Notes: generated by a model from the sequence alone, not told the origin. A DNA stretch of 64,000 nucleotides from Candidatus Parcubacteria bacterium (GCA_021731405.1 JAKFXN010000005.1:169892-233891), one strand, 5' to 3'; numbered from the stretch's first letter, positions 2,938-61,394 are shown. Numbers and translations are program-made.

Positions 2938-3660
2938 ATGTCCGAATTCCCGATGCGAATCAACAAATATCTCGCTGAACAAAAAATAGCTTCCCGCCGG
3001 GAAGCTGATGTGCTTATAGAGCGCAAACAAGTGCTCATTAACGGCAATGTGGCGGTTCTTGGTCAACAGGTGAACGAAGGAGACAAGGTCACCATTGCTG
3101 GTGCGACCAAAAAGTATGTCTATCTCGCCTACTACAAAGGTCGCGGTATTATCACTCACTCGCCAAGCGAAGGTGAAATTGATATTGCTACCCGCCTCAA
3201 GAAAGATTACAGCATTACCAATGTCGCTCCACTTGGTCGCCTCGACAAAGACTCTGAGGGTCTGATTATTCTTAGTAACGATGGACGCATCACTGGACCA
3301 GTCTTGGATCCTGAGCTCAATCATGAAAAAGAGTATGAAGTGACGGTGGACAAGCCAATTAGTGGCATGTTTACCAAAATGATGGCGCTCGGTGTAGATA
3401 TCGAAGGCTACCACACCAAGCCAGCAATTATTAAAACCAGTCCTCGCAACGACAAGAAGTTTAACCTCACTATCACTGAGGGAAAAAAGCACCAGATTCG
3501 ACGCATGTGTGCTGCTCTTGGTTATCAGATTCAATCTCTCAAGCGTATTCGTGTCATGAATATTGAACTCGGTACTCTCAAACCAAATCAGTATCGCAAG
3601 ATTGCTGGCGATGAACTCAAAACGCTCATGAAAGAGCTTGATGTAAAAAGTCCAAAGTAA
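2938..3660 (+). CDS. Pseudouridine synthase, RsuA/RluB family (S4 domain + catalytic domain)
   Basis: S4-like N-terminus (RINKYLAEQKIASRREADVLI). Catalytic Asp motif PLGRLDKDSEGLIILSNDG and C-terminal KKHQIRRM. The likely start is the MSEFPM Met, downstream of the track start. Confidence 0.8.
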   Translation: MSEFPMRINKYLAEQKIASRREADVLIERKQVLINGNVAVLGQQVNEGDKVTIAGATKKYVYLAYYKGRGIITHSPSEGEIDIATRLKKDYSITNVAPLGRLDKDSEGLIILSNDGRITGPVLDPELNHEKEYEVTVDKPISGMFTKMMALGVDIEGYHTKPAIIKTSPRNDKKFNLTITEGKKHQIRRMCAALGYQIQSLKRIRVMNIELGTLKPNQYRKIAGDELKTLMKELDVKSPK

Positions 3661-3677
3661 GGCACCGTTTAAATAAT

Positions 3678-3706
3678 AAAGCCGCGTCCCAAAAGGACGC
3701 GGCTTT
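3678..3706. terminator. Bidirectional rho-independent terminator between convergent rsuA-like and typA
   Basis: Hairpin aaagccgcgtcc-caaaa-ggacgcggcttt flanked by A-run and T-run. Confidence 0.6.
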
Positions 3707-3724
3707 ATTATTTCGTATTTCAAA

Positions 3725-5512
3725 TTAACTTCCCTTCTTTCGGTCACCTTCCTTCAACTTTGATTTTCGGAGACGAACATTGTGTGGAGTGATTTCGAGG
3801 TACTCGTCTTCAGTCATGATTTCCAGACCAGTTTCAATAGTTACCACTCTTGGATTCACAAGTACTACAGCCTCATCGGTACCTGAAGCACGCATGTTAG
3901 TGAGCTGCTTACCCTTAGTTGGGTTTACCGTCATTTCCTCACCCTTACTGGTGTTACCAATTACCATACCTTCGTACACTTCAGTACCAGCGCCGATATA
4001 GAGCTGTCCGCGGTCTTGAAGACTGAACAGTGCAAAGGCAAGTGCCTTGCCTTGAACCATCGAAATCATAGAGCCTACCTGGCGCTTCTTGATTTCTCCT
4101 GCGTAATCCTTAAACCCAAGTACACGAGAAGCCAAGATACCTTCACCCTTAGTGTCTACGATAAATTGGTTTTTGTAGCCAAGAATACCTCGAGTTGGTC
4201 CTTCAAACATAAGTCGCACTTGGTTTTCATGTACTACCATGTTGGTCATGATAAAGGCACGGTTACCAAGACGTTCAATTACTGCACCTTGGAATTCTGA
4301 AGGCACGTCGATAGTTACTTCTTCAAACGGCTCAGACTTTACCCCTTCAATTTCCTTCACAATAACTTGTGGTTGAGACACTGAAAGTTCGTAGCCTTCA
4401 CGACGCATGTTTTCGAGCAAAATAGCAATGTGCATTTCTCCCCGACCACGTACTTCAAAAGAATCTCCTTGTGAGAAGTCTACCTGCAGTCCTACGTTGA
4501 TTTCAAGCTCTCGTTCGAGACGTTCACGAATTTGGCGTGAAGTTACATACTTACCTTCTCGTCCCGCAAACGGTGAAGAGTTCGGCATAAACTGGAGAGC
4601 AATCGTTGGTTCGTCTACCTTAATCGAAGGTAACGCTACCGCCGTTTCTGAATCAGTAAGGGTATCTCCAATATTAATGTCAGAGAAACCAGCAATCATC
4701 ACAATATCACCCGCAAACGCTTCTGGGGTTTCAAGTTTTGAAATACCCTTAAAGGTTGAGAGCTTTACAATCTTTCCTTTCTTTATCTCACTCTCTCCTT
4801 CGTGCATAACACAGAGTTGCTGATTTGATTTCATTGAACCTTCATAGATACGAGCTACTGCAAGACGTCCAAGGAAGTTGTCGTACCCGAGGTTAAATAC
4901 CTGTGCTCGAAGTCCTTCACCTGCTACATACGGACGAGCTGGTGGAACTTTTTCCAAAATTACATCAAGAAGCGGTGAGAGGTCAACGAGTTCATCACTC
5001 ATCTTTCGCTTGGCAGTACCGTCGCGTCCTACTGCATATACCACAGTGAAGTCTGACTGTTCATCATTAGCACCTAACTCCAAGAAGAGTTCGAGTACTT
5101 GTTCTTCAGTACGAGAAGGGTCAGCTGCTGGCTTATCAATTTTGTTGATAACCACAATTGGCTTAAGGCCAAGTTCAAGAGACTTCTTGAGTACGAAGCG
5201 AGTTTGCGGCATTGGACCTTCTTGGGCATCTACCACAAGAAGTACAGAGTCGATGGAGCGTAGTACACGCTCTACTTCAGAACCGAAGTCCGCGTGACCA
5301 GGAGTGTCCACAATATTGATTTTTGTACCCTTGTACTCAACTGAAGTGTTCTTAGCATAAATAGTAATACCACGCTCAAGTTCAAGCGCGTTACTATCCA
5401 TTGAAGCACCCTTTTCACGGGCACCTGTTTGCTCCATAAGAGCATCAGTGAGCGTGGTCTTGCCATGGTCCACGTGGGCAATAATGGCAATATTGCGAAT
5501 TTCCTTTGACAT
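3725..5512 (-). CDS. typA: Translational GTPase TypA/BipA
   Basis: N-terminus MSKEIRNIAIIAHVDHGKTTLTDAL with G-domain motifs. Length 595 aa with EF-G-like domains. Confidence 0.9.
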   Translation of the reverse strand: MSKEIRNIAIIAHVDHGKTTLTDALMEQTGAREKGASMDSNALELERGITIYAKNTSVEYKGTKINIVDTPGHADFGSEVERVLRSIDSVLLVVDAQEGPMPQTRFVLKKSLELGLKPIVVINKIDKPAADPSRTEEQVLELFLELGANDEQSDFTVVYAVGRDGTAKRKMSDELVDLSPLLDVILEKVPPARPYVAGEGLRAQVFNLGYDNFLGRLAVARIYEGSMKSNQQLCVMHEGESEIKKGKIVKLSTFKGISKLETPEAFAGDIVMIAGFSDINIGDTLTDSETAVALPSIKVDEPTIALQFMPNSSPFAGREGKYVTSRQIRERLERELEINVGLQVDFSQGDSFEVRGRGEMHIAILLENMRREGYELSVSQPQVIVKEIEGVKSEPFEEVTIDVPSEFQGAVIERLGNRAFIMTNMVVHENQVRLMFEGPTRGILGYKNQFIVDTKGEGILASRVLGFKDYAGEIKKRQVGSMISMVQGKALAFALFSLQDRGQLYIGAGTEVYEGMVIGNTSKGEEMTVNPTKGKQLTNMRASGTDEAVVLVNPRVVTIETGLEIMTEDEYLEITPHNVRLRKSKLKEGDRKKGS

Positions 5513-5627
5513 ATGAATAAGCTTAAAAATAAATAATGTACCTCGCTTCGTATAAACGAGAAGAGCGCACTCAAATAATGGGCGCGCCCAGAAACGTTGA
5601 TAGAATACCTATAAAACGCCCTTTTGT

Positions 5628-5879
5628 CTAGTGTTTAATGAGTAGCTGCTTTTCAATACGAGACAACTTCTTTATCACTGCTTCACGCTTTAAAGCTGCT
5701 CCTCTACCGCTCTGTGCCTCAAAATACGAAAGAACTACCGGTCTTCTGGCTTTAGTGTATTTAGCGCCTGTTTTTGCTTCGTTATGGGCCAAAACGCGCT
5801 TTTCTACGTCATTAGTGACGCCAGTATAGAGAGTTCCGTCAGCGCAGGTAAGGATGTAGACGTACCAAGAATCACTCAT
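5628..5879 (-). CDS. GIY-YIG nuclease family protein (UPF0213/YhbQ-like)
   Basis: [29 protein letters not shown] motif. 83 aa. Confidence 0.75.
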
Positions 5880-29534: not shown

Positions 29535-30554
29535 TTAAGAGCCTGAACTGATCGAAGCAGGAAAAAGTGTCTTTCCTTTCTCCCACATTTCAGGATGATT
29601 ATTTTTTGTGAGCCAGTACCACCACTCCGCTCCCCACAAATATTGTCGCTCATAGCGTGTTTCTTTTGCATATCCCAAGATATCGTCAAACTTTACTGGA
29701 TCCATGCGTGAAAACTGCACTTCAAGCGGTACGGTTGTAATGGGCGCCACGAGCCACGGCTCAGCCGAAAGCTCAATCAAAAACGTCGGCTTTTCGCCAT
29801 AGATAAGGGCCAAGAAATTTTCTTTCACCCGATACACAAAAGCAGGTAGCAATGTTCTAAACTGTCCAATTTCTGGATTCCAAAAATGCACGTACACACT
29901 CGTACCAAAAATGTCGCCGCGACTATACGCGCCGTACCACAGACCCAAGTTTCCACTATCGGTTACAATAACCTGCCGTGTTGGGTCTAGCTTGCGTACG
30001 AGCTCAATTTCACTATCTAGAAAGTCAGTATCGAGGCGACCACAGTGCTCAAACGCAAATACCTCTAAGAAGGGTTCGTTTTCAACCTGCCAATACTTTA
30101 CTGCACTACTTCCCTTGTATCGTTCTATCACCGCAGTCATGTACGCCATCTGGCTTTCATTGCGCGCTTCGTCACTGATTTCACGAGCCCATTCTGGCAC
30201 ATGACACTCCGGCCAACGGGGTAGTCTTCTTCCCAGCGCCAAAATGACCTCAGCCCCCACACTCTCGGCTTTTTCTATTTGATAATCGAGCTCGGCGAAA
30301 TTGTAGGTGCCTGCTTCAGGTTCTACCATTGGCCAATGAGCGGCCAAACGAAGATGCCTTACTCCTAAGTCATCAATGATAGCGTTGTAGGTCTCCTGCC
30401 AATCAAGCCCAAGCTCACGCGCATACATGGTATTAAAAGACATTCCATACACAATCTGCTCCGGAATTGGCTTTTGCGCAAAAAACACTATTACAAGCAC
30501 AAGTAAAACGAGTTTTACAAAGAGTGCTATAAGAATTATTTTCCACCAAGCCAT
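29535..30554 (-). CDS. Membrane-anchored glycoside hydrolase (TIM-barrel; GH5/GH42-like)
   Basis: N-terminal TM anchor. WQVENEP acid/base motif typical of clan GH-A. Confidence 0.55.
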   Translation of the reverse strand: MAWWKIILIALFVKLVLLVLVIVFFAQKPIPEQIVYGMSFNTMYARELGLDWQETYNAIIDDLGVRHLRLAAHWPMVEPEAGTYNFAELDYQIEKAESVGAEVILALGRRLPRWPECHVPEWAREISDEARNESQMAYMTAVIERYKGSSAVKYWQVENEPFLEVFAFEHCGRLDTDFLDSEIELVRKLDPTRQVIVTDSGNLGLWYGAYSRGDIFGTSVYVHFWNPEIGQFRTLLPAFVYRVKENFLALIYGEKPTFLIELSAEPWLVAPITTVPLEVQFSRMDPVKFDDILGYAKETRYERQYLWGAEWWYWLTKNNHPEMWEKGKTLFPASISSGS

Positions 30555-30556
30555 AT

Positions 30557-31489
30557 TTATAAGAAAAGAATAAAGTAACCAACTGTAATGACCGCTACAT
30601 AGAGCACTCGTCTCAATACTTCTTTTGGTCGTGCCTCATGTCGCACAATCGCATCAGGTAAGAGCGCGCCAAAAGCAATTGTCACTGCCAAGATAAACAC
30701 AAACTTAAGCCCATCAAGAGCTTGCACTACTGCTACATCTCCTAAGTCTGTTGCTTTGAGTAGCAAGAAGGCCGCTACGCCCGCCAATACTTTGGTAACA
30801 ATAACAATGAGACCGGTTTTTTTACTGGTCTTTTTGGTTTGTTCGGTAATTTTATCAAAGTACGCAGGAATCATAAGAAGCGACAGGGCAAAGACCACAA
30901 AGCTGATGCGTGACCAAAAGAAGCCGTCATCAAAGCTTGTCTCCATAAACAACCCTTTCATAGCGATGAAGTGCAGCGCAAAAAAGATACCACTATGTAG
31001 CAGGTTCAAAATAATACTTCGATGCGGCATAGTCTGAGCCACTAGGAGCGTACCGAGTGAAAGCACAATCACGCCCCACATAAAATTGGCAGAAAATGGC
31101 GTATTCAAGAATAGGTGACTCATCCCAAACGTAGAGAGCGCTGAGACTGCCCCAATAACAGGCATCACGTTTACCGCCTCTGCATGCTTGAGTGCCTCAT
31201 ACATGGACACCAGCGCCATAAAGAAGGTATAGGCAGCCAAGAACGACATTCCAATCACTTGAATGGTTGGGCTTTCAATATTGGCAAAAGAAGGAACGCC
31301 TATAGTAGAGAGGCCTGGTATAAAACCAATGAAATAGATGACAACCCAAAAACCAGTAAGTAAGCAAGAGTAAAAGGCGTACACAAAAGGCCTTGGGAGA
31401 GCCTTTTCGTCAGTAACTATGTACTTATCAAGAAAAGCGACGACAGCATTAATGAGCTGTCCAACAGTTGCTAAAAATAGCCATGACAT
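30557..31489 (-). CDS. Multi-pass membrane protein (DMT/EamA-like)
   Basis: About 10 TM helices. Gene lies between two glycosidases. Confidence 0.45.
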   Translation of the reverse strand: MSWLFLATVGQLINAVVAFLDKYIVTDEKALPRPFVYAFYSCLLTGFWVVIYFIGFIPGLSTIGVPSFANIESPTIQVIGMSFLAAYTFFMALVSMYEALKHAEAVNVMPVIGAVSALSTFGMSHLFLNTPFSANFMWGVIVLSLGTLLVAQTMPHRSIILNLLHSGIFFALHFIAMKGLFMETSFDDGFFWSRISFVVFALSLLMIPAYFDKITEQTKKTSKKTGLIVIVTKVLAGVAAFLLLKATDLGDVAVVQALDGLKFVFILAVTIAFGALLPDAIVRHEARPKEVLRRVLYVAVITVGYFILFL

Positions 31490-31495
31490 ATAGCT

Positions 31496-32722
31496 CTATT
31501 CTAACAGAGCGTTTGCCTCACATATTTTTTTATACACGTACGCTGAGGGTCGTATTGTTCGCTCTTGAGTTTCGTAATTGATAGCGACCAAACCAAACCG
31601 CTTCTCATATCCTAGTGCTAATTCGTAGTTATCCAAAAGAGACCAATACATATGTCCTCGCACATCAACACCGTCTTGAATAGCGCACCACATTCCATCC
31701 ACTTGTCTGGTAATATATCCTGCTCGCATCTTATCTTCAGCATCAGCTAATCCAGCCTCTGAAATGTAGATTGGTTTTTTGTGTTTCCAAAGATACTTCA
31801 AAGCAAACTCTATTCCTTCGGGATATATCTTCCAACCCATGTCACTGAGTTGGTACTTTTTTGTGTCGCCAAATTTTGTAGCTCGATAGTAGTTTAGACC
31901 AACAGAATCACATTTATCGATAACTCTATTCATCAAATATCCACTCTGGACATACCGGGCTATGCAGGCCAGTAGCATATTGACGGGATTCGCGTTTGAC
32001 TGAAATACCCTCACGTGTTTAACAATACTGACATTGATGTTTTGGTCTGTTTCTTTTATTTTATCGTACGCTAAATTGTGTGCTTTTATCAAATTATTAA
32101 CCACTTTAAAATACGTAAGTATATTTTTATGAGAGGTAATTTGCGCTGATCGCCAAGTACCGTCAGGTTTGCCAAATTTAAACCACAGCAACTGACCCCG
32201 CTTAAAAGGTGGCCACGCACCATATAACCAACCATGGCTAGCAAATACGTTTGGTTCATTAATGGTTGAGAAGTTGTGACACAAATCTGACAGATTCTTC
32301 ACAACGTACGCGCTATAACGAGCAAACACCTCAGGGGCATCTTTACGTTCAAAGCCCCCCGACTGTGAGAACCAGAGCGGGAGTGTAAAATGCCAAATAG
32401 TAATAAACGGCTCTATGTTGCGCCTGCGAAGCGCCTCTAGTACTTTTCGATAATGATTGATAGCTTCCAAATCGAACTTACCTTCCTCGGGCTCAATGCG
32501 CGCCCACTCAATCGAGAGGCGGTGAGCGTTATGACCAAGTAATTTTACTAAATCAAAATCGGCTTCATACCGATTAAAATGATCGGCCGCAATGCCAATC
32601 TTAGGCACAAGTCCTTTTTTAGCTGCTTCTTCCCAATCCATATTCTTTATTCCTCCCTCTACCTGAAAAGCAGATGTCGCCGCACCCCAGTAAAAACCAT
32701 CCGGAAATTTTTTCTCTGTCAT
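31496..32722 (-). CDS. Glycoside hydrolase family 1 (beta-glucosidase)
   Basis: FPDGFYWGAATSAFQVEGG N-terminus. TINEPN acid/base motif and an ISEAG nucleophile region. Confidence 0.85.
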   Translation of the reverse strand: MTEKKFPDGFYWGAATSAFQVEGGIKNMDWEEAAKKGLVPKIGIAADHFNRYEADFDLVKLLGHNAHRLSIEWARIEPEEGKFDLEAINHYRKVLEALRRRNIEPFITIWHFTLPLWFSQSGGFERKDAPEVFARYSAYVVKNLSDLCHNFSTINEPNVFASHGWLYGAWPPFKRGQLLWFKFGKPDGTWRSAQITSHKNILTYFKVVNNLIKAHNLAYDKIKETDQNINVSIVKHVRVFQSNANPVNMLLACIARYVQSGYLMNRVIDKCDSVGLNYYRATKFGDTKKYQLSDMGWKIYPEGIEFALKYLWKHKKPIYISEAGLADAEDKMRAGYITRQVDGMWCAIQDGVDVRGHMYWSLLDNYELALGYEKRFGLVAINYETQERTIRPSAYVYKKICEANALLE

Positions 32723-32788: not shown

Positions 32789-33349
32789 TTAAATGAGGGG
32801 ATACTGAGCAAAATTGCCAGACTCACCCAAAGACCCAAAACCGGATTTAAGAACTTTCAACTGTTTATGGTCACTTCCCAGACCAAAGTAGGCTGTACGG
32901 TCTGGGAGACGCAGTTTGCGTACCGGACCAACTAGCGGAGTCCTTGAAATGTAGTAACCATTTTTTGTCAGCCATCCAAGGTACCAAACTTCACCAGGGG
33001 GCACCTCGCAAGTAGGCTTGATTACCACAAAGTTTCTCCGCCAAAACCGTTTCCTCCAATACGTGAAGGCCATGCAACGCCGTTTCTTGCGACACGCTTT
33101 TGGGTCGCCAGAGACTATTGCCATATCCGCCTCGTCGAGCCACCAATTTTCTTTGAGATCAAAGGAGACGATAGTCCACGGAAACGACTGGAACGCAGCT
33201 TCTTCACGATTTTCATGCACAAAGTGCATGATTTTTTTCATGAACCAACTGCGCAACATATCCCAGCGACTCAGCTCTGGAAACAGTACAGTCTTGGCTT
33301 TCTGCACTGGTTGCTGTTTGCCTAAATCTGCTTTTTTAACGGTATTCAA
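32789..33349 (-). CDS. Hypothetical protein
   Basis: 186 aa, Trp/Arg-rich, no recognised domain. Confidence 0.35.
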   Translation of the reverse strand: MNTVKKADLGKQQPVQKAKTVLFPELSRWDMLRSWFMKKIMHFVHENREEAAFQSFPWTIVSFDLKENWWLDEADMAIVSGDPKACRKKRRCMAFTYWRKRFWRRNFVVIKPTCEVPPGEVWYLGWLTKNGYYISRTPLVGPVRKLRLPDRTAYFGLGSDHKQLKVLKSGFGSLGESGNFAQYPLI

Positions 33350-33483
33350 AGTGTACTCCTCGTACGAAATGAGTTGATTTATCTGTTTTTATTATAGCAC
33401 ACTTTAGGCTATAAATCAATGTTTTGTTTCTTTTCAGCCTCTCCTCTACTTCAATACTAAAAATGTCTGACTAGTCGCAGATT

Positions 33484-34263
33484 TTATAGGGCAACCGGTT
33501 CACCGCCAAAACAGCTAATCATTCCCGCCCGCTCTGTAGATACGTAGTATCGATACGAACCAGCTACTGTCGCTCCCCCGCAACTATCAGTCTTTACACT
33601 CTCGTTTGCGCCATAAATTGGGAACCCATCAAGTGCATATCCTAAGAGAGTCTCCGCTCCAAAGATAGTGTAAAGTGACTGCTCGGTATTACGCATCAAA
33701 GATCCATCAAGTGCTATCCCAACAATGTCAGAAGACAAACATGTCTCAGTTGGTGATGGAAAACTGCGGAGTGGTAGCTGCAGCAAGACTGTTCGACTAG
33801 GTACGCCAGGGACTGTCTCCCCGAGCTCATTAACTGTTGCTGGAGTTGCGCCACCTTCACGGTAAACCAATCGCGCCCCTTCCACTACCTCAAACAACAG
33901 ACCTTGTGGCTGCCACGCCATTACTTTTGGTGCACTATAATTTGGACAAAGCAAGACTTCACCTGTTCCCTCTTCTACCTCTGTCTCTTCCTCCACAGGC
34001 TCCACTATTTCTTCTTCAGGGACAGGAGACAGTACGAGTGCAGCGATTTTTTCTCTGAGGCTCGCCAACTTGGATGAACGAGTATCAGCACCATGTTCTG
34101 GGAGTACTGCCTGATATGAAGTGGACGCGGTCTCATCAAAGACTGCTACCGAGGCCAGGTTATCTTCACTTACCAAATCGGTATGTACGGTACTAGTGAT
34201 ACCGACAATCAAAAAAGCTACCGTAAGGAGAAACAACGCAAAATCTCGAGTTCGAAAAGGCAT
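33484..34263 (-). CDS. Membrane-anchored exported hypothetical protein
   Basis: N-terminal TM, an acidic EEE linker and a C-terminal Cys-containing domain. Confidence 0.4.
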   Translation of the reverse strand: MPFRTRDFALFLLTVAFLIVGITSTVHTDLVSEDNLASVAVFDETASTSYQAVLPEHGADTRSSKLASLREKIAALVLSPVPEEEIVEPVEEETEVEEGTGEVLLCPNYSAPKVMAWQPQGLLFEVVEGARLVYREGGATPATVNELGETVPGVPSRTVLLQLPLRSFPSPTETCLSSDIVGIALDGSLMRNTEQSLYTIFGAETLLGYALDGFPIYGANESVKTDSCGGATVAGSYRYYVSTERAGMISCFGGEPVAL

Positions 34264-34314
34264 GTAAGTAATAATAGCAGAAAGGTCAGGTGTTCTCTAA
34301 ACAAACCCCCAAAC

Positions 34315-35616
34315 CTACGCGCGGGATGCAATCTTAATCTCGACAAGCTGTTCGACACGACGAATATCAGCTAATAATTTTGACCGGTCTGGATTCTTCA
34401 TAAAGAGGTTAAACACAGAGCGCCCACCATTTCGTGCAAAGATTGCTTTGTCTCCTAGTTTTTTATTGACTTCTATGCGATGAAAAGATTCTAGCTGCTC
34501 AATTTTTTTAATTCCTTTCATCTCCACAATAAAACCCTCTTTGACTGCGAACCATTTCATTGCACACGCGTAACCGGTACATTTTTTTGGAAGCTGTACT
34601 TTTGCTGGGATACGAATCAGCACATCATTCAACGAATGATCAATACCACAGGTTAAAGTGTGAAGTTCGTGACGAAATCCACCCATCCGCGCACCAATCT
34701 CAATTACTTTCCATTCGTCGTCAATCTTCATCAATTCAGTATGTGTAATAGTGCTCCGCAGCCCAAGTGCATGGATAGCTTTCTCAGCCACCAGCTGCGC
34801 CTTCTCTACTGTTGTTCGCTTCAGAATTGGTGGAGTGATTTGCAGATATCCATAAAAATCATCGTGGCCAATCATCTTTCCAGTTTTTATTTTTACCAGA
34901 GGACAATGCTCCACCTTCCCCCGAGCAGTCACGTATGAGTCCACTGAGTACATGTCACCATCCATGAACTCTTCTATGATGACCTTTGGTTCTTCTAGGC
35001 GATCATCATGTTCATAGGCTGTACGGAGCTTGCTAAAAGTAGAACGAAGTGTTTTTTCTAAATCTTCTTCGTGATAACAAATTGATACAAAAAGACTAGC
35101 CGCTAAGTTGGTTGGCTTTATAATCATCGGAAAACCAATTTTCTCGACCACCCGCTTTCGCTCCGCTTTTGTGTTTTCTTTTACCAGAGTAAAGACAGGA
35201 ATAATTGTCGAATCATACATTTTCATGCGCTTCCTCATTTCATACTTATCACTCGCCCACTTGAGCGACTCCGTGGTTGGGGTGCGTAAATACGGCACAT
35301 GAGGAATAACCTGCACAAAGCGAGCCATATTTTGCTCAGAACGACAGGTAATAGCGAGGAGTTCTTCTTGGTATGGTAATAACGCCTCAGCAATCTGATT
35401 TGGCTTTGAAAAATCGCAGACAAGCGGAATATCAACCCCTGATCCGCGGAGCTTATTTTTCTTATCTTTAACCCGAGAATCCCACAAAAGCATAATCTTA
35501 TACTTCTTTTTGGTGAGTTTTTCGTAACGACGAACACTTTCGACAGCTCCGTCGGGAAGATTCATGACATAGACAATAATACGTCTCTCAAGCTCTGTTT
35601 TTTGCATAGATAGCAC
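34315..35616 (-). CDS. ATP-grasp domain ligase (L-amino-acid-ligase/carboxylate-amine-ligase-like)
   Basis: 433 aa. GFPMIIKP… IIEEFMDGDMYSVD… KVIEIGARMGG ATP-grasp fold motifs. Confidence 0.65.
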   Translation of the reverse strand: MLSMQKTELERRIIVYVMNLPDGAVESVRRYEKLTKKKYKIMLLWDSRVKDKKNKLRGSGVDIPLVCDFSKPNQIAEALLPYQEELLAITCRSEQNMARFVQVIPHVPYLRTPTTESLKWASDKYEMRKRMKMYDSTIIPVFTLVKENTKAERKRVVEKIGFPMIIKPTNLAASLFVSICYHEEDLEKTLRSTFSKLRTAYEHDDRLEEPKVIIEEFMDGDMYSVDSYVTARGKVEHCPLVKIKTGKMIGHDDFYGYLQITPPILKRTTVEKAQLVAEKAIHALGLRSTITHTELMKIDDEWKVIEIGARMGGFRHELHTLTCGIDHSLNDVLIRIPAKVQLPKKCTGYACAMKWFAVKEGFIVEMKGIKKIEQLESFHRIEVNKKLGDKAIFARNGGRSVFNLFMKNPDRSKLLADIRRVEQLVEIKIASRA

Positions 35617-35766
35617 TATCTTGTAAATAAACGGCTCTGTAATTCAGATTGAGCCTGAGTTCGGTCCATCAGATAGAGCTACAGCATACTATACTTTTTG
35701 TTATTTTTGTGTAACATAACACTATTAGCAAAAATCAATACTTGACTTTTTTGAGACTCTTTTCGC

Positions 35767-36666
35767 ATGATAAAAAATAAAATTTATTTAGTAAATAATA
35801 AAAAGAAAGAGCCTGAGTTCAAAAAAACCTTCAAAAAAATAGCCGCTGAGGCCAAGCGAGATTTTACTGAAATTTCGGTGCTTGATTGTGCCTTTTCATA
35901 CTCACGTACTGACGGAAAAACAAAAGTCTATCACCTTGGCAAACCGCTTAGTCTCAACTCAACTACTTGGTTCATCCGGGCTTGGTCACCTTCAGAAGAT
36001 GCAACTGCATTATTGTGCATTCTCCTAGAATTGCACAAAATACCTTTCACTGATGCAAAGGTCAACACCAGTCACGAGATTCGAACTTCAAAACTTTCTC
36101 AAACGTTTCAATTAGCTGCCTCGAACTGCCCTTGTCCAAACACTTGGGTTGTGCCGCTTGCCTCTTTTTCTTCATACAAAACTATTGTCGCGAAAGAGCT
36201 TGGTTTTCCGCTAGTCGTAAAAACACGCGGCGGACTTGGCAAACGTGTTTGGAAGTGTGACGGAGCAAGCGAACTGTCAAAAACTATCAGCCGGATTAAA
36301 GCTGAGGGTAACGATGATTTGGTTATACTCCAAGAAAATATCGCTAACGACGGCGATATTCGAGTTGTTGTTTGGAAAGGTAAAGTACTTGCTAGTATTT
36401 TGCGACAAAGTACCACTGGCTTCCTTAACAATGTATCGCAAGGTGGTACAGCCAGTCTTACAAGTATCACCGCAGTAGAGAAGCGGTTAGCGATAGCGGC
36501 TAGTAAAGCAGTTGGGTTGGACTTAGCTGGGGTTGATTTAGTGCGAACAGGAAGTGAGACATTGATCTTTGAAGTGAATAAAGCGCCCGACATCACTTCA
36601 TTTCATGATGCAGCAAGAAGTGACATCGCAAAAATTATTTGTGAAGACTTTATTTCCAAAAATTAA
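35767..36666 (+). CDS. RimK-like ATP-grasp ligase
   Basis: PLVVKTRGGLGKRVW…GDIRVVVWKG…NVSQGGTAS…AGVDLV…IFEVNKAPD. Confidence 0.7.
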   Translation: MIKNKIYLVNNKKKEPEFKKTFKKIAAEAKRDFTEISVLDCAFSYSRTDGKTKVYHLGKPLSLNSTTWFIRAWSPSEDATALLCILLELHKIPFTDAKVNTSHEIRTSKLSQTFQLAASNCPCPNTWVVPLASFSSYKTIVAKELGFPLVVKTRGGLGKRVWKCDGASELSKTISRIKAEGNDDLVILQENIANDGDIRVVVWKGKVLASILRQSTTGFLNNVSQGGTASLTSITAVEKRLAIAASKAVGLDLAGVDLVRTGSETLIFEVNKAPDITSFHDAARSDIAKIICEDFISKN

Positions 36667-37523
36667 TACCCTTCTCCAGCAGCAACTATCAAATCAGCGA
36701 CATGATCTGTCACCCTTACTCCAAGAGCCGCTTCAAGACCTTTCCATCCTGGATTAACATTTGCTTCAATAAAAAAGAGTTCTCCCGTTGCTGTTGATTG
36801 CATGATATCTATCCCTGCAATATCTAACTGTTGAGCTTTTGTTATAGCTACTGCTATTTTGGAAAGTGCGTCATACAATTCGCCCGCAGGTACTGGGCGG
36901 CCACTTCCACCCTGAGAAATATTGGCTCTAAAATCACCTGGTTTTGGTACCCGCTGAAAAATAGCACGTACCTGACCCCCAACTACGAATACTCTAAAAT
37001 CGCCTTCGTTTGGGATAAATTTCTGCATCAAAATATCTCCATCAAGATCGCTGACCTGTTCTAGGTATTCTGTTTCTGAAGTTACCAAAAAAACTTTTTT
37101 TCCTTGTATTCCTTCTGCCGCCTTTAAAACAAAAGGTGAACCTAGTCTTGCAACAACGGTCGCATATGAACGTCCTCTACCTATCAAGGTCTCTGGGACC
37201 AGCACACCAATCTTTTGCGCCCGTACCGCTTGATGTATTTTATTACTGAGTAAGGTATTTTGAAGAGCAGATGCATTAATTATAGCTACCCCCACTTCGC
37301 GTAATTTTTCATATAGTCCCAAACGAGCTCCGTCGCCAAAACCTGTTCGGTAGTAGACTACATCTGCTTGTGTGTACGGTGCCCAAAAATCTTCACTTAG
37401 AAAATCCTGAACGGCTATACTTGGACTAATTAATGTGACCTCGTGTCCACGACCTTGGAGCTCTTCAGTAAGCTGGCTCAACTCCCAGATTGGTTTACCC
37501 TTGCACACCAATACAATTTTCAT
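36663..37523 (-). CDS. RimK-like ATP-grasp ligase
   Basis: PFVLKAAEGIQGKKVF…GDFRVFVVGG…ANISQGGSG…AGIDIM…FFIEANVNPG. Confidence 0.7.
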   Translation of the reverse strand: MKIVLVCKGKPIWELSQLTEELQGRGHEVTLISPSIAVQDFLSEDFWAPYTQADVVYYRTGFGDGARLGLYEKLREVGVAIINASALQNTLLSNKIHQAVRAQKIGVLVPETLIGRGRSYATVVARLGSPFVLKAAEGIQGKKVFLVTSETEYLEQVSDLDGDILMQKFIPNEGDFRVFVVGGQVRAIFQRVPKPGDFRANISQGGSGRPVPAGELYDALSKIAVAITKAQQLDIAGIDIMQSTATGELFFIEANVNPGWKGLEAALGVRVTDHVADLIVAAGEGY

Positions 37524-37528
37524 AACGC

Positions 37529-38224
37529 TTATTGAGGAATACCAAACTCAACAACTGGTGCCGCTTCCGTAGAAGAAGCTGTGGCATCTGGGTTTACTGC
37601 CGCCGCAATTTGGTTGTAGAAATCTTCGTACGTTTGTATAACCATACGCTCTCCGTTTAAGAAGAAAGTTGGTGTTCCTGTAAGGCCAAGCGTACGCGCT
37701 GCGGCCGCATCTTCACGTACTTTATCCTTTACCAAAGACGCCCCGTAATGTCGTTCAAACAAATCGACATCAAGTTCAAGCTCTGAAGCAAAATCACGGA
37801 AGAAGATCATCGGGTTTGGACTATTTGACCAAGCCTTCTGATTGATGAAGAGGAGGTCATGAAACTCAAAGAATTTTCCTTGTTGACCCGCTGCTTCAGC
37901 TGCCCGTGCTGCTGGCTCAGCTAGAGGGTGGATTGGAAGTGGAAAGTGTTTGTACTCAAAAGCTATCTTGTCACCAAACTCTTCCATGATATCTTCCACT
38001 ACTGGATGGAAAGAAGCACAAGCTGGGCACTGGAAGTCACTGTATTCAGTCAAAGTAACAGTAGCAGCTTCATTGCCTTTGACGTGCGGAGTAAAAGTAA
38101 TGCCCTCATTATTTTTTTCAGCCACTGTACCCGAGTACCAGACTGAACCTCCGATTAATACAGCAGCTATAACAGCGATTATTATCCATGGATTTTTCAT
38201 ATAGGAAAAGTGTACCATATACAC
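37529..38224 (-). CDS. DsbA-family thiol:disulfide oxidoreductase (membrane anchored)
   Basis: CPAC active site (EYSDFQCPACASFHP). Thioredoxin fold. Confidence 0.8.
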   Translation of the reverse strand: MYMVHFSYMKNPWIIIAVIAAVLIGGSVWYSGTVAEKNNEGITFTPHVKGNEAATVTLTEYSDFQCPACASFHPVVEDIMEEFGDKIAFEYKHFPLPIHPLAEPAARAAEAAGQQGKFFEFHDLLFINQKAWSNSPNPMIFFRDFASELELDVDLFERHYGASLVKDKVREDAAAARTLGLTGTPTFFLNGERMVIQTYEDFYNQIAAAVNPDATASSTEAAPVVEFGIPQ

Positions 38225-38255
38225 AAAGTAGAATTACGACCACAAAATAATCATT

Positions 38256-39047
38256 GTGAGCCGTCAAAGCATTGCTTCAAAAGGCTTTTCGTGTTCTAAT
38301 GCGTGTCTTATGGCCCGCAAACCTAACTTCACACGCAAGAAAACCCGAAAACAGCACGGCGAAACCTTCTGGGATGCTGAGTACAAAAACCCTACCCACC
38401 TAAAGCTCTCGGTGAACCCGAGTGAGGACTTAGAGAAGTTTACCCGCTGGGTAATACGACGTAAGCGCGAAGACGTTTTTGGTCCAAAAGCGAGCGCTCT
38501 TGATGTTGGTTGCGGCAATGGACGGAATCTTATTTTCCTCAACAACGAGTTTGGTAACCCTGGGGTTGGCTATGACATTTCAAAAGCTGCTATTGCGCAA
38601 GCTGCACTCGCCTCTCGCAAGAAGCCTATTAAGTACACGGCTCGAAGTATTGCTGGAAAACTCGACGTCGAAGACAACTCACAAGCGCTGGTACTCGATA
38701 TGATGAGCTCGCACTTTCTAAATAAAGACGAACGACTCTTTTTACGTGATGAAATTTTCCGCACACTCGAACCAGGCGGACTTCTCTTTATGAAGACTTT
38801 TCTTAAGGATGGAGACCTACACACCAAAAGACTTATTGAAGAACGCCCTGGTAAAGAAGAAGGAAGCTATATTCACCCAGTCATGGGTGTAGCAGAATAT
38901 GTATACAGTGAAGAAGAACTTATCGACTTTCTTTCTGAAAAGTTCATCGTCCACAAAATCTACCGCTCACACAAACATGCCTTTCGTGGCCAAGCCCGCA
39001 AGCGACGCACTATCACTATCTACGCTGAGAAAGACCGCTTTAAATAA
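38256..39047 (+). CDS. Class I SAM-dependent methyltransferase
   Basis: Motif I LDVGCGNGRNLIFL. The start may be an internal Met near 38313. Confidence 0.7.
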   Translation: MSRQSIASKGFSCSNACLMARKPNFTRKKTRKQHGETFWDAEYKNPTHLKLSVNPSEDLEKFTRWVIRRKREDVFGPKASALDVGCGNGRNLIFLNNEFGNPGVGYDISKAAIAQAALASRKKPIKYTARSIAGKLDVEDNSQALVLDMMSSHFLNKDERLFLRDEIFRTLEPGGLLFMKTFLKDGDLHTKRLIEERPGKEEGSYIHPVMGVAEYVYSEEELIDFLSEKFIVHKIYRSHKHAFRGQARKRRTITIYAEKDRFK

Positions 39048-61094: not shown

Positions 61095-61394
61095 TTAAGT
61101 ATACTCTTCTTCATCATCCTGTCGTGCTTTTTTTCGACGACCTCCCTTAGCTTTGCCGCCGCCAAACATTCCCATGACACGAGTGAGCAAACCATCTTCT
61201 GAAAAAAACATTCGGATGTGCGCCAAGTCACTCGCAAGGACTTCACTTCCTGCTTCTACTCGCTCCAAAATTGAGCGGACCAACTGCATAATCTTAATCA
61301 CTTGAAACAGCATATAACAGACGAGTATACAAAAGCAGACCGTCGCAATGCTGGCAATTATGAAAAAGATGTTGGCGTGTAGAATTTCATTCAT
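61095..61394 (-). CDS. Small membrane protein (DUF948-like)
   Basis: N-terminal TM, helical, with a basic/acidic tail. Confidence 0.4.
   Translation of the reverse strand: MNEILHANIFFIIASIATVCFCILVCYMLFQVIKIMQLVRSILERVEAGSEVLASDLAHIRMFFSEDGLLTRVMGMFGGGKAKGGRRKKARQDDEEEYT

Follow-up and report, generated by a model that had tools for sequence, protein, structure and literature searches.

A 64-kb stretch of DNA from a Candidatus Parcubacteria bacterium (64,000 nucleotides; hereafter the window) carries three adjacent genes, A (34315-35616, minus strand), B (35767-36666, plus strand) and C (36663-37523, minus strand), whose sequences identify them as three intact ATP-grasp ligases. We compared their locus with 79 A-containing loci from related Paceibacteria of the candidate phyla radiation (CPR), labelled L###; database homologues are labelled P####. 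The names of database matches put the window itself in Paceibacteria, close to Kaiserbacteria. A is the constant hub of these loci, and the gap between A and a DsbA gene is a variable slot filled by interchangeable accessory cassettes. Across genomic contexts, and by gene fusion, A is genetically coupled to enzymes that extend or trim peptides at carboxylates. The reading that we favour, with somewhat less than even confidence, is that A, B and C constitute a functionally linked cytoplasmic ATP-dependent module that would build a short, likely acidic peptide or polymer in a stepwise manner.

Accessory genes cluster with ligase A

A is found in all 79 comparison loci. Of the 62 species-representative loci whose sequence extends at least 2.5 kb upstream of A, 42 have one or more accessory genes no farther than about 3 kb from A. 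These genes are RimK-like (28), belong to a family of ~250 amino acids termed U250 (13), or are MATCAP-like (9), Mur-ligase-like (M-like; 2) or extra copies of A (2), and about 8 of the 62 loci combine A with two RimK-like genes. Across 70 species-representative loci, which are related by descent and in which accessory families were defined by hidden Markov models made from genes of the slot itself, 63 accessory genes lie no more than 2.5 kb from A compared with 4 in the remaining 377 kb, a 19-fold enrichment near A (binomial p = 3e-17). The clustering of ligases is not a product of chance. The association is also kept in 10 of the 18 loci in which A has a different gene backbone. In these non-backbone loci A has 44-53% identity and abuts U250 (L059, L063 and L075), a MATCAP-like gene (L061 and L070), an M-like gene (L068) or two RimK-like genes (L062 and L066), and the other neighbours are unrelated (PfkB, TrxB-like, ABC-F, FAD oxidase, YceG and DnaJ). 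The accessory link travels with A rather than with DsbA.

The slot is empty in L001, L013 and L015-L020, for example. In the window and in L006, L007, L009 and L078 it holds a C-type and a B-type RimK-like gene in the order DsbA-C-B-A. A first, sequence-only reading had proposed looking for conserved co-occurrence of the ligases in other genomes; such co-occurrence is found, and given this recurring architecture the stepwise ligation suggested there is the most economical reading of the locus. Some loci carry a single RimK-like gene of the C or B lineage, and L021, L023, L039, L047 and L074 carry two other RimK-like genes. Elsewhere the slot contains an M-like protein of 415-434 amino acids, alone (L003-L005), with C (L008) or with a 317-amino-acid ATP-grasp protein (L024); a MATCAP/DUF1704-like protein of ~440 amino acids together with U250 (L046, L053, L055, L056 and L079); U250 with a RimK-like gene, or two U250 genes; or, in L010, an extra A paralogue. 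Every identifiable slot occupant makes or breaks amide bonds.

The M-like proteins lack the N-terminal, UDP-binding domain of Mur ligases. They match positions 481-860 of the cyanophycin synthetase profile TIGR02068 at 1e-41 to 1e-50 (140-172 bits), compared with ~1e-22 for MurE, and their PDB matches at E ≤ 1e-5 are cyanophycin synthases only (best 1.3e-24). An identity as FolC, MurT or CapB was rejected: the FolC match is ~1e-5, whereas the M domain of cyanophycin synthetase (CphA) is matched at 1e-41 to 1e-50. Members of this family lie at L003:6601-7854, L005:6524-7828, L008:8946-10193 and L068:4683-5942, and the L024 pair spans 3617-5816. For the ATP-grasp proteins of 317-331 amino acids, which make up the RimK_4 family, the first matches are to the G domain of CphA, to CphA2 and to the ATP-grasp half of GshAB. 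Together, the M-like and G-like matches in L024 indicate a split cyanophycin-synthetase-like pair beside A.

The MATCAP-like slot proteins match PF08014 (6e-24) and TIGR02421 (QEGLA), with an invariant HExxxH and EG.A kept. U250, examples of which lie at L011:5063-5827, L033:4410-5965, L046:4964-5797 and L053:5095-5868, is usually convergent with a MATCAP-like or RimK-like gene beside A and has invariant W, F, Y, G, P and HG.D.N.YG.N..IG..FKL motifs. Profile searches of Pfam, NCBIfam and the PDB returned no significant match for U250, and hhalign found it unrelated to the other slot families; single members give sub-threshold matches to Acetyltransf_6 (GNAT) and FemAB_like (E = 0.14).

Gene fusions also couple distant relatives of A to a peptidase. 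An exhaustive search with A returned 141 clusters (50% identity) at E ≤ 1e-30, and five long A-family matches are fusions: three (P0275, P0289 and P0343; 554-577 amino acids) join an A-like part to a PF05618 RimB/RloA-type retropepsin-like peptidase, and two (P0310 and P0344; 768 amino acids) join it to a GT4 glycosyltransferase. A seemingly 612-amino-acid A in L066 is an over-extended open reading frame (ORF) and not a fusion. Outside Paceibacteria, C has its nearest relatives (35% identity) in Rlo-like multi-ligase operons, L080 and L081. The related RloABC operon comprises an ATP-grasp protein, a peptidase and a 7TM-transglutaminase (bioRxiv 10.1101/2025.03.18.643919). In L080 (2938-7864) and L081 (2938-9194), which are Dojkabacteria-like CPR loci, the operon lies directly downstream of the genes for ribosomal proteins L11-L1-L10-L7/L12 and encodes 7TM_transglut, ATPgrasp_ST fused to a RimB-like domain, a RimK-like protein, DUF3541 and a second RimK-like protein; L081 adds a 445-amino-acid protein.

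Three diverged ATP-grasp ligases

A, B and C are the only ATP-grasp proteins of L-amino-acid ligase (LAL) or RimK-like type in the window. The sequence-only reading had named them as three adjacent ATP-grasp genes, and their ORFs, Pfam domains and catalytic motifs bear this out; NCBI annotation also calls B and C as genes. A, a LAL-type carboxylate-amine ligase of 433 amino acids as called, matches PF13535 ATP-grasp_4 (1e-19, 71.2 bits; cut-off 27), and its best solved relatives in a PDB sequence search are the LALs BacD (4e-10) and BL00235. Both results agree with the LAL-like character first assigned to it; the match to PF18603 LAL_C2 (20.7 bits) remains under the gathering score of 29.4, and A falls far under the NCBIfam BacD and Ddl equivalog cut-offs. 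Homologues of A form more than 120 clusters (68-87% identity) in Paceibacteria, and K167, E294, E306, R310, G312, G313 and R315 are invariant across the family. The idea that A is exceptionally conserved was ruled out, since its 60-70% identity is on a par with that of backbone genes, among them those for the GH42-like protein and the methyltransferase. The start called for A is GTG 35616; the real start is probably ATG 35607, giving 430 amino acids, because the database homologue P0001 has that length. Many A orthologues end in a variable Lys-rich tail of 15-40 amino acids, for example ...KKVAKKTIKTKKK (such proteins are encoded at L024:5980-7341, L029:5992-7335, L030:5998-7350 and L036:5983-7332); A of the window has no such tail.

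B (299 amino acids, B lineage) and C (286 amino acids, C lineage) are RimK-family ligases by PF08443, exceeding its gathering score of 21 bits at 85.8 bits (3.6e-24) and 105.2 bits (4.3e-30), respectively. C additionally matches PF02955 GSH-S_ATP (1.3e-13, 51.2 bits; cut-off 23), with B right at the cut-off (23.0 bits). The ATP-grasp catalytic set is kept in both (ATP-binding Lys, GDxR, N-x-S/H-x-GG and Mg-binding E-x-N), and the RimK-like motifs first noticed by eye, GDIRVVVWKG, NVSQGG and EVN in B and GDFRVFVVGG, NISQGG and EAN in C, align with those of RimK in structures 7QYS, 7QYR and 5ZCT. C aligns along its full length with RimK 7QYS, and B aligns with 7QYS too.

Neither protein reaches a specific family. 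Profile searches placed both below the S6-ligase equivalog NF007764 (cut-off 331 bits; B 66.6, C 70.4), LysX TIGR02144 (275.6; B 83.3, C 76.7), MptN NF040720 (350; B 86, C 102), CofF TIGR04443 (300; B 30, C 45) and cyanophycin synthetase TIGR02068 (850; B 33, C 43.5, in the G-domain region only), so that neither is a bona fide member of the RimK S6-ligase, LysX, MptN or CofF groups. C reaches only 48-53 bits against GshB equivalogs (cut-offs 272-299); it appears to share a domain with GshB, and these scores do not support orthology. By these profiles, B and C are best described as divergent RimK superfamily members outside the curated TIGR00768 family. At 31% identity to each other, they are old paralogues rather than the result of a recent duplication. 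B homologues (58-66% identity) occupy the same position in L006, L007, L009 and L078, and C orthologues (43-57% identity) likewise keep theirs.

The three ligases do not form one operon and belong to three transcription units. C and A lie on the same strand, and B lies on the other, convergent with C and divergent from A. C starts 5 nucleotides past the stop codon of the DsbA-like gene on the same strand and is therefore probably co-transcribed with it, DsbA being the first gene of this unit. The stop codons of B and C overlap tail to tail by 4 nucleotides (36663-36666), which leaves no space for a terminator; among 17 convergent accessory pairs, 14 abut in the same way (-24 to +7 bp), irrespective of family. 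The overlap of B with C and the divergence of B from A suggest transcriptional interplay. The divergent A-B intergenic region (150 bp, 35617-35766) showed no conserved small ORF or RNA in ORF and Rfam scans. It contains a putative promoter for A (35688-35715, minus strand), a consensus match consisting of GTTACA, a 16-nucleotide spacer and TATAGT; its -10-like element falls in AAAAGTATAGTATGCTGT, the sole motif that the A-B spacer has in common with that of L006.

A model of stepwise ligation and its alternatives

LALs join free amino acids, and cyanophycin is a free polymer whose synthesis is primer-dependent. In the module that we favour, A would convert a free amino acid or small acid into an acyl phosphate at its carboxylate and then form the first amide bond, yielding a dipeptide-type primer. 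C and then B, acting like RimK, GshB or the CphA G domain, would each phosphorylate a terminal or side-chain carboxylate of this product and attach one more residue, Glu or Asp being the likeliest. The outcome would be an oligopeptide or poly-amino-acid that is short, varies between lineages and is probably acidic. Extension in sister lineages may instead fall to split cyanophycin-synthetase-like G and M proteins, or a MATCAP-like metallo-carboxypeptidase may trim the product.

Several observations weigh against this model. B and C miss every curated equivalog cut-off and also fall short of TIGR00768 (cut-off 143.4 bits; B 117.3, C 125.1), and the three genes are spread over three transcription units. 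A is alone in 20 of the 62 counted loci, so it must have a role of its own, independent of B and C, and the phylogenetic relatedness of the loci means that the counts are not independent events. The AlphaFold 2 model of A is mediocre (mean predicted local distance difference test (pLDDT) of 66), with the C-terminal domain unresolved (pLDDT below 50 for residues 356-433). A Foldseek search of the PDB with this model returned generic ATP-grasp folds (PurK, biotin carboxylase and LAL alike), which neither tell these families apart nor give any hint of specificity. The Glu or Asp specificity proposed for the added residues is drawn by analogy. Finally, the two distant A-GT4 fusions and an envelope-rich backbone (DsbA, YceG, DAGK and GH-like) point to a glycopolymer or cell-wall acceptor.

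A first alternative, which we consider unlikely but well short of negligible, is that the locus writes and erases C-terminal tails on a protein: A and the RimK-like ligases would add residues, probably Glu, to a target such as S6, and MATCAP-like or RimB-like peptidases would remove them. RimK provides the top-scoring family and structures for B and C, and in other loci the slot is taken instead by MATCAP-like carboxypeptidases whose HExxxH is intact. A-like domains are, moreover, fused to a RimB-type peptidase, and RimB takes Glu off polyglutamylated RpsF and boosts poly-alpha-Glu synthesis by RimK (PMC11957791). Against tailing, B and C reach only 66-70 bits where NF007764 demands 331, the nearest characterized relatives of A join free amino acids, and the cyanophycin-synthetase-like alternatives in the slot yield a free polymer. 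We found no rpsF (S6) gene in the window or in any fetched locus, and no conserved acidic C terminus among the locus families, in the window or in the comparison loci. To our knowledge, the target gene is not usually found beside RimK-type ligases, and its absence here is therefore no argument against tailing.

A second alternative, distinctly less probable, is that A places an amino acid on a sugar-acid or muropeptide-type carboxylate of an envelope glycopolymer or cell-wall peptide, which B and C then extend. The variation between lineages would then resemble that of peptidoglycan cross-bridges or pseudomurein peptides, and swaps of ligases between lineages are typical of cell-wall peptide diversity. 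This account draws on the two distant A relatives fused to GT4, on the neighbouring genes (DsbA, YceG/MltG, DAGK, a P-type ATPase, a membrane-anchored GH42-like protein and HtrA) and on the sub-threshold resemblance of U250 to Acetyltransf_6 and FemAB_like, a fold that is itself unproven. It is opposed by the M-like proteins, which have no Mur UDP-binding N-domain and match the CphA M domain rather than MurC-F or MurT, and by the non-backbone loci, in which A keeps its accessory genes and loses its envelope neighbours. We know of no RimK-family enzyme in murein synthesis.

It is improbable that the adjacency is coincidental, with a recombination-permissive DsbA-A gap gathering unrelated genes and A, B and C acting independently. 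In favour of coincidence, 12 backbone loci have nothing in the slot, close relatives differ in what it holds, B lies on the opposite strand, and A clearly works without B or C in many genomes. Against it, the identifiable occupants are all amide-bond ligases or peptidases, enrichment near A is 19-fold, A-like proteins are fused to RimB-like peptidases, and the link follows A, and not DsbA, into unrelated contexts (L059, L061-L063, L066, L068, L070 and L075).

Maturation of a graspetide, a peptide made by the ribosome and modified after its translation, which the sequence-only reading had offered, or a LysW-type amino-group carrier pathway is effectively refuted: the weak matches of C to the maturases TIGR04185 and TIGR04187 (~9e-9, ~35 bits; cut-offs 350-475, and 350-425 as compared here) and of B and C to LysX (1e-21 to 1e-23; 77-83 versus 276 bits) are far under cut-off, no LysZ, LysY, LysJ or LysK-type gene lies nearby, and in or near the locus neither the window nor the four orthologous loci encode a conserved small ORF, precursor or LysW-like acidic-tail peptide. 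The ORF listing covered ORFs of at least 20 amino acids at 33300-38300 and in the A-B spacers of L006, L007, L009 and L078, and none was conserved or acidic, in line with the initial impression that no precursor or LysW-like ORF is obvious; the 20-29-amino-acid ORFs of the A-B spacer are not acidic and show no conservation in those four loci. A gathering-threshold Rfam scan of the whole window found two tRNAs elsewhere, and an E-value scan of the locus was empty.

Broader still than the stepwise module, and in our view rather unlikely, is a modular peptide code of Paceibacteria and neighbouring CPR lineages in which A would be the writer, RimK-like or split-CphA proteins the lineage-specific extenders, MATCAP the eraser and U250 perhaps an aminoacyl-transferase, together building and trimming either a polymer akin to cyanophycin, for storage or signalling, or a reversible tail at the C terminus of a protein. 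If true, it would constitute a bacterial counterpart of the tubulin tyrosination/polyglutamylation cycle in ultra-small symbionts.

Backbone neighbours

In most Paceibacteria loci the backbone runs from a divergent methyltransferase through an optional P-type ATPase, DsbA, the slot, A, a YHYH-like gene and an RNase-H-like gene to GH1, EamA-like and GH42-like genes, often followed by HtrA. In the window, the DsbA-like gene (37529-38224, minus strand) encodes a membrane-anchored thiol:disulfide oxidoreductase (Thioredoxin_4 2.7e-25, DSBA 1.4e-16). Most backbone loci have DsbA upstream of the slot, regardless of what occupies it. The DsbA-like protein and its orthologues in most loci have a low-complexity Ser/Thr/Ala-rich linker followed by a conserved C-terminal V-(E/Q/R/K)-F-G-(I/L), the window protein ending in ...VVEFGIPQ. 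Beyond DsbA lies a class-I S-adenosylmethionine methyltransferase gene (38256-39047, plus strand; Pfam Methyltransf_25 and Methyltransf_11), whose start is likely ATG 38310, giving 245 amino acids as in its homologues. The methyltransferase is 60-92% identical in loci with or without accessory ligases and is missing from non-backbone A loci. The sequence-only reading had attached both genes to the ligases. Their presence is borne out by Pfam; a specific role is not, since methyltransferase and DsbA occur regardless of RimK-like genes and are thus backbone genes rather than specific ligase partners.

Directly downstream of A is a YHYH-like gene (33484-34263, minus strand; Pfam YHYH 1.3e-5) encoding a protein anchored in the membrane at its N terminus; about 50 backbone loci have this gene after A, and non-backbone loci do not. 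Next to it, a 186-amino-acid ORF without Pfam or NCBIfam match (32789-33349, minus strand) occupies the place of the 240-amino-acid RNase_H_2/DNA_pol_B_exo2-like gene of most related genomes and has weak homologues in L007, L010, L011, L017 and L028. At 29535-32722 (minus strand) is a trio strongly syntenic in Paceibacteria: a GH1 beta-glucosidase-like protein, an EamA-like multi-pass membrane protein of 310 amino acids and a GH42-like protein with a membrane anchor. In other genomes, a gene for an HtrA-type protease often comes next.

Some 24 kb from the ligase locus, the window encodes a predicted membrane protein of 99 amino acids without Pfam match (61095-61394, minus strand), with the C terminus ...RRKKARQDDEEEYT. 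This end is acidic and tubulin-like; of the window ORFs with 60 amino acids or more, no other has a strongly acidic tail at its C terminus.

Significance and comparison with known systems

CPR bacteria, or Patescibacteria, have minimal genomes from which most biosynthesis is missing. Yet beside A, about two-thirds of the sampled species maintain between one and three additional amide ligases that consume ATP, or else a dedicated peptidase, and their upkeep in minimal genomes suggests a selected, undescribed product: a peptide, a polymer or a protein tail. Natural split cyanophycin synthetases would be useful for understanding and engineering amino-acid polymerases, the locus gives MATCAP/DUF1704 peptidases a bacterial genetic context, and U250 is a new 250-amino-acid family without detectable homology. 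The parts are small soluble enzymes, so the model can be tested by heterologous expression without culturing the organism. The protein families and RimK-type ligase-peptidase pairings are already known. A CPR locus in which a LAL-type hub is combined with exchangeable cassettes of RimK-like, split-CphA-like, MATCAP-like and U250 type is new to the literature that we searched: searches on DUF1704 with ATP-grasp, on QEGLA and bacterial MATCAP proteins, on RimK in Parcubacteria and on cyanophycin in Patescibacteria returned no account of such a locus.

Among known systems, RimK/RimABK resembles B and C in the RimK ATP-grasp domain and catalytic motifs. The pairing of a ligase with an antagonistic peptidase recurs here in sister loci (MATCAP-like) and in fusions (A-like with RimB-like). 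RimK also produces free poly-Glu. The window differs in that B and C fall under the RimK-family and S6-ligase cut-offs and in that two diverged RimK-like paralogues are paired with a LAL-type ATP-grasp ligase, with no RimA or RimB. CphA1 and CphA2, with their N-G-M architecture, offer a second parallel. Their G and M domains act as a pair of ligases that together lengthen and branch a peptide, and sister slots hold stand-alone proteins whose best matches are the CphA M and G domains; B and C themselves match the G domain weakly (1e-8 to 1e-11). By contrast, the window has no M-like gene, the sister proteins are split rather than fused and lack the N domain, no cyanophycinase or isoaspartyl dipeptidase lies nearby, and A is an extra, LAL-like partner.

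Glutathione synthesis (GshA and GshB, or GshAB) likewise makes a small peptide by two successive ATP-dependent ligations. C scores above the GSH-S_ATP gathering threshold, the ATP-grasp half of GshAB is among the matches of RimK_4, and a thiol-redox gene, DsbA, heads the operon that contains C. The differences are that C is far under the GshB equivalogs and that the locus has no GshA-type ligase and no sign of thiol chemistry. The tubulin tyrosination cycle (TTL/MATCAP) is mirrored in sister loci that couple an ATP-grasp ligase to a MATCAP-family peptidase with HExxxH, whereas the window has no MATCAP-like gene and the sister match is to PF08014 and TIGR02421 (QEGLA) only. With RloABC/7TM-transglutaminase operons, the locus shares the nearest outside relatives of C, which sit in the multi-ligase operons L080 and L081. 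The window itself lacks 7TM-transglutaminase, DUF3541 and RimB-like genes, and the L080 and L081 operons lack an A-type ligase.

The closest parallel to A itself is with the LALs (BacD/YwfE, RizA, BL00235 and TabS), which it resembles in ATP-grasp_4, in its weak LAL_C2 match and in length. BacD and BL00235 are its best PDB sequence matches and LALs are among its top folds, but structure-alignment identity is just 14-19% and A is far under the BacD equivalog cut-off. Unlike those enzymes, A is no member of an antibiotic cluster; it is a conserved core gene of a CPR class.

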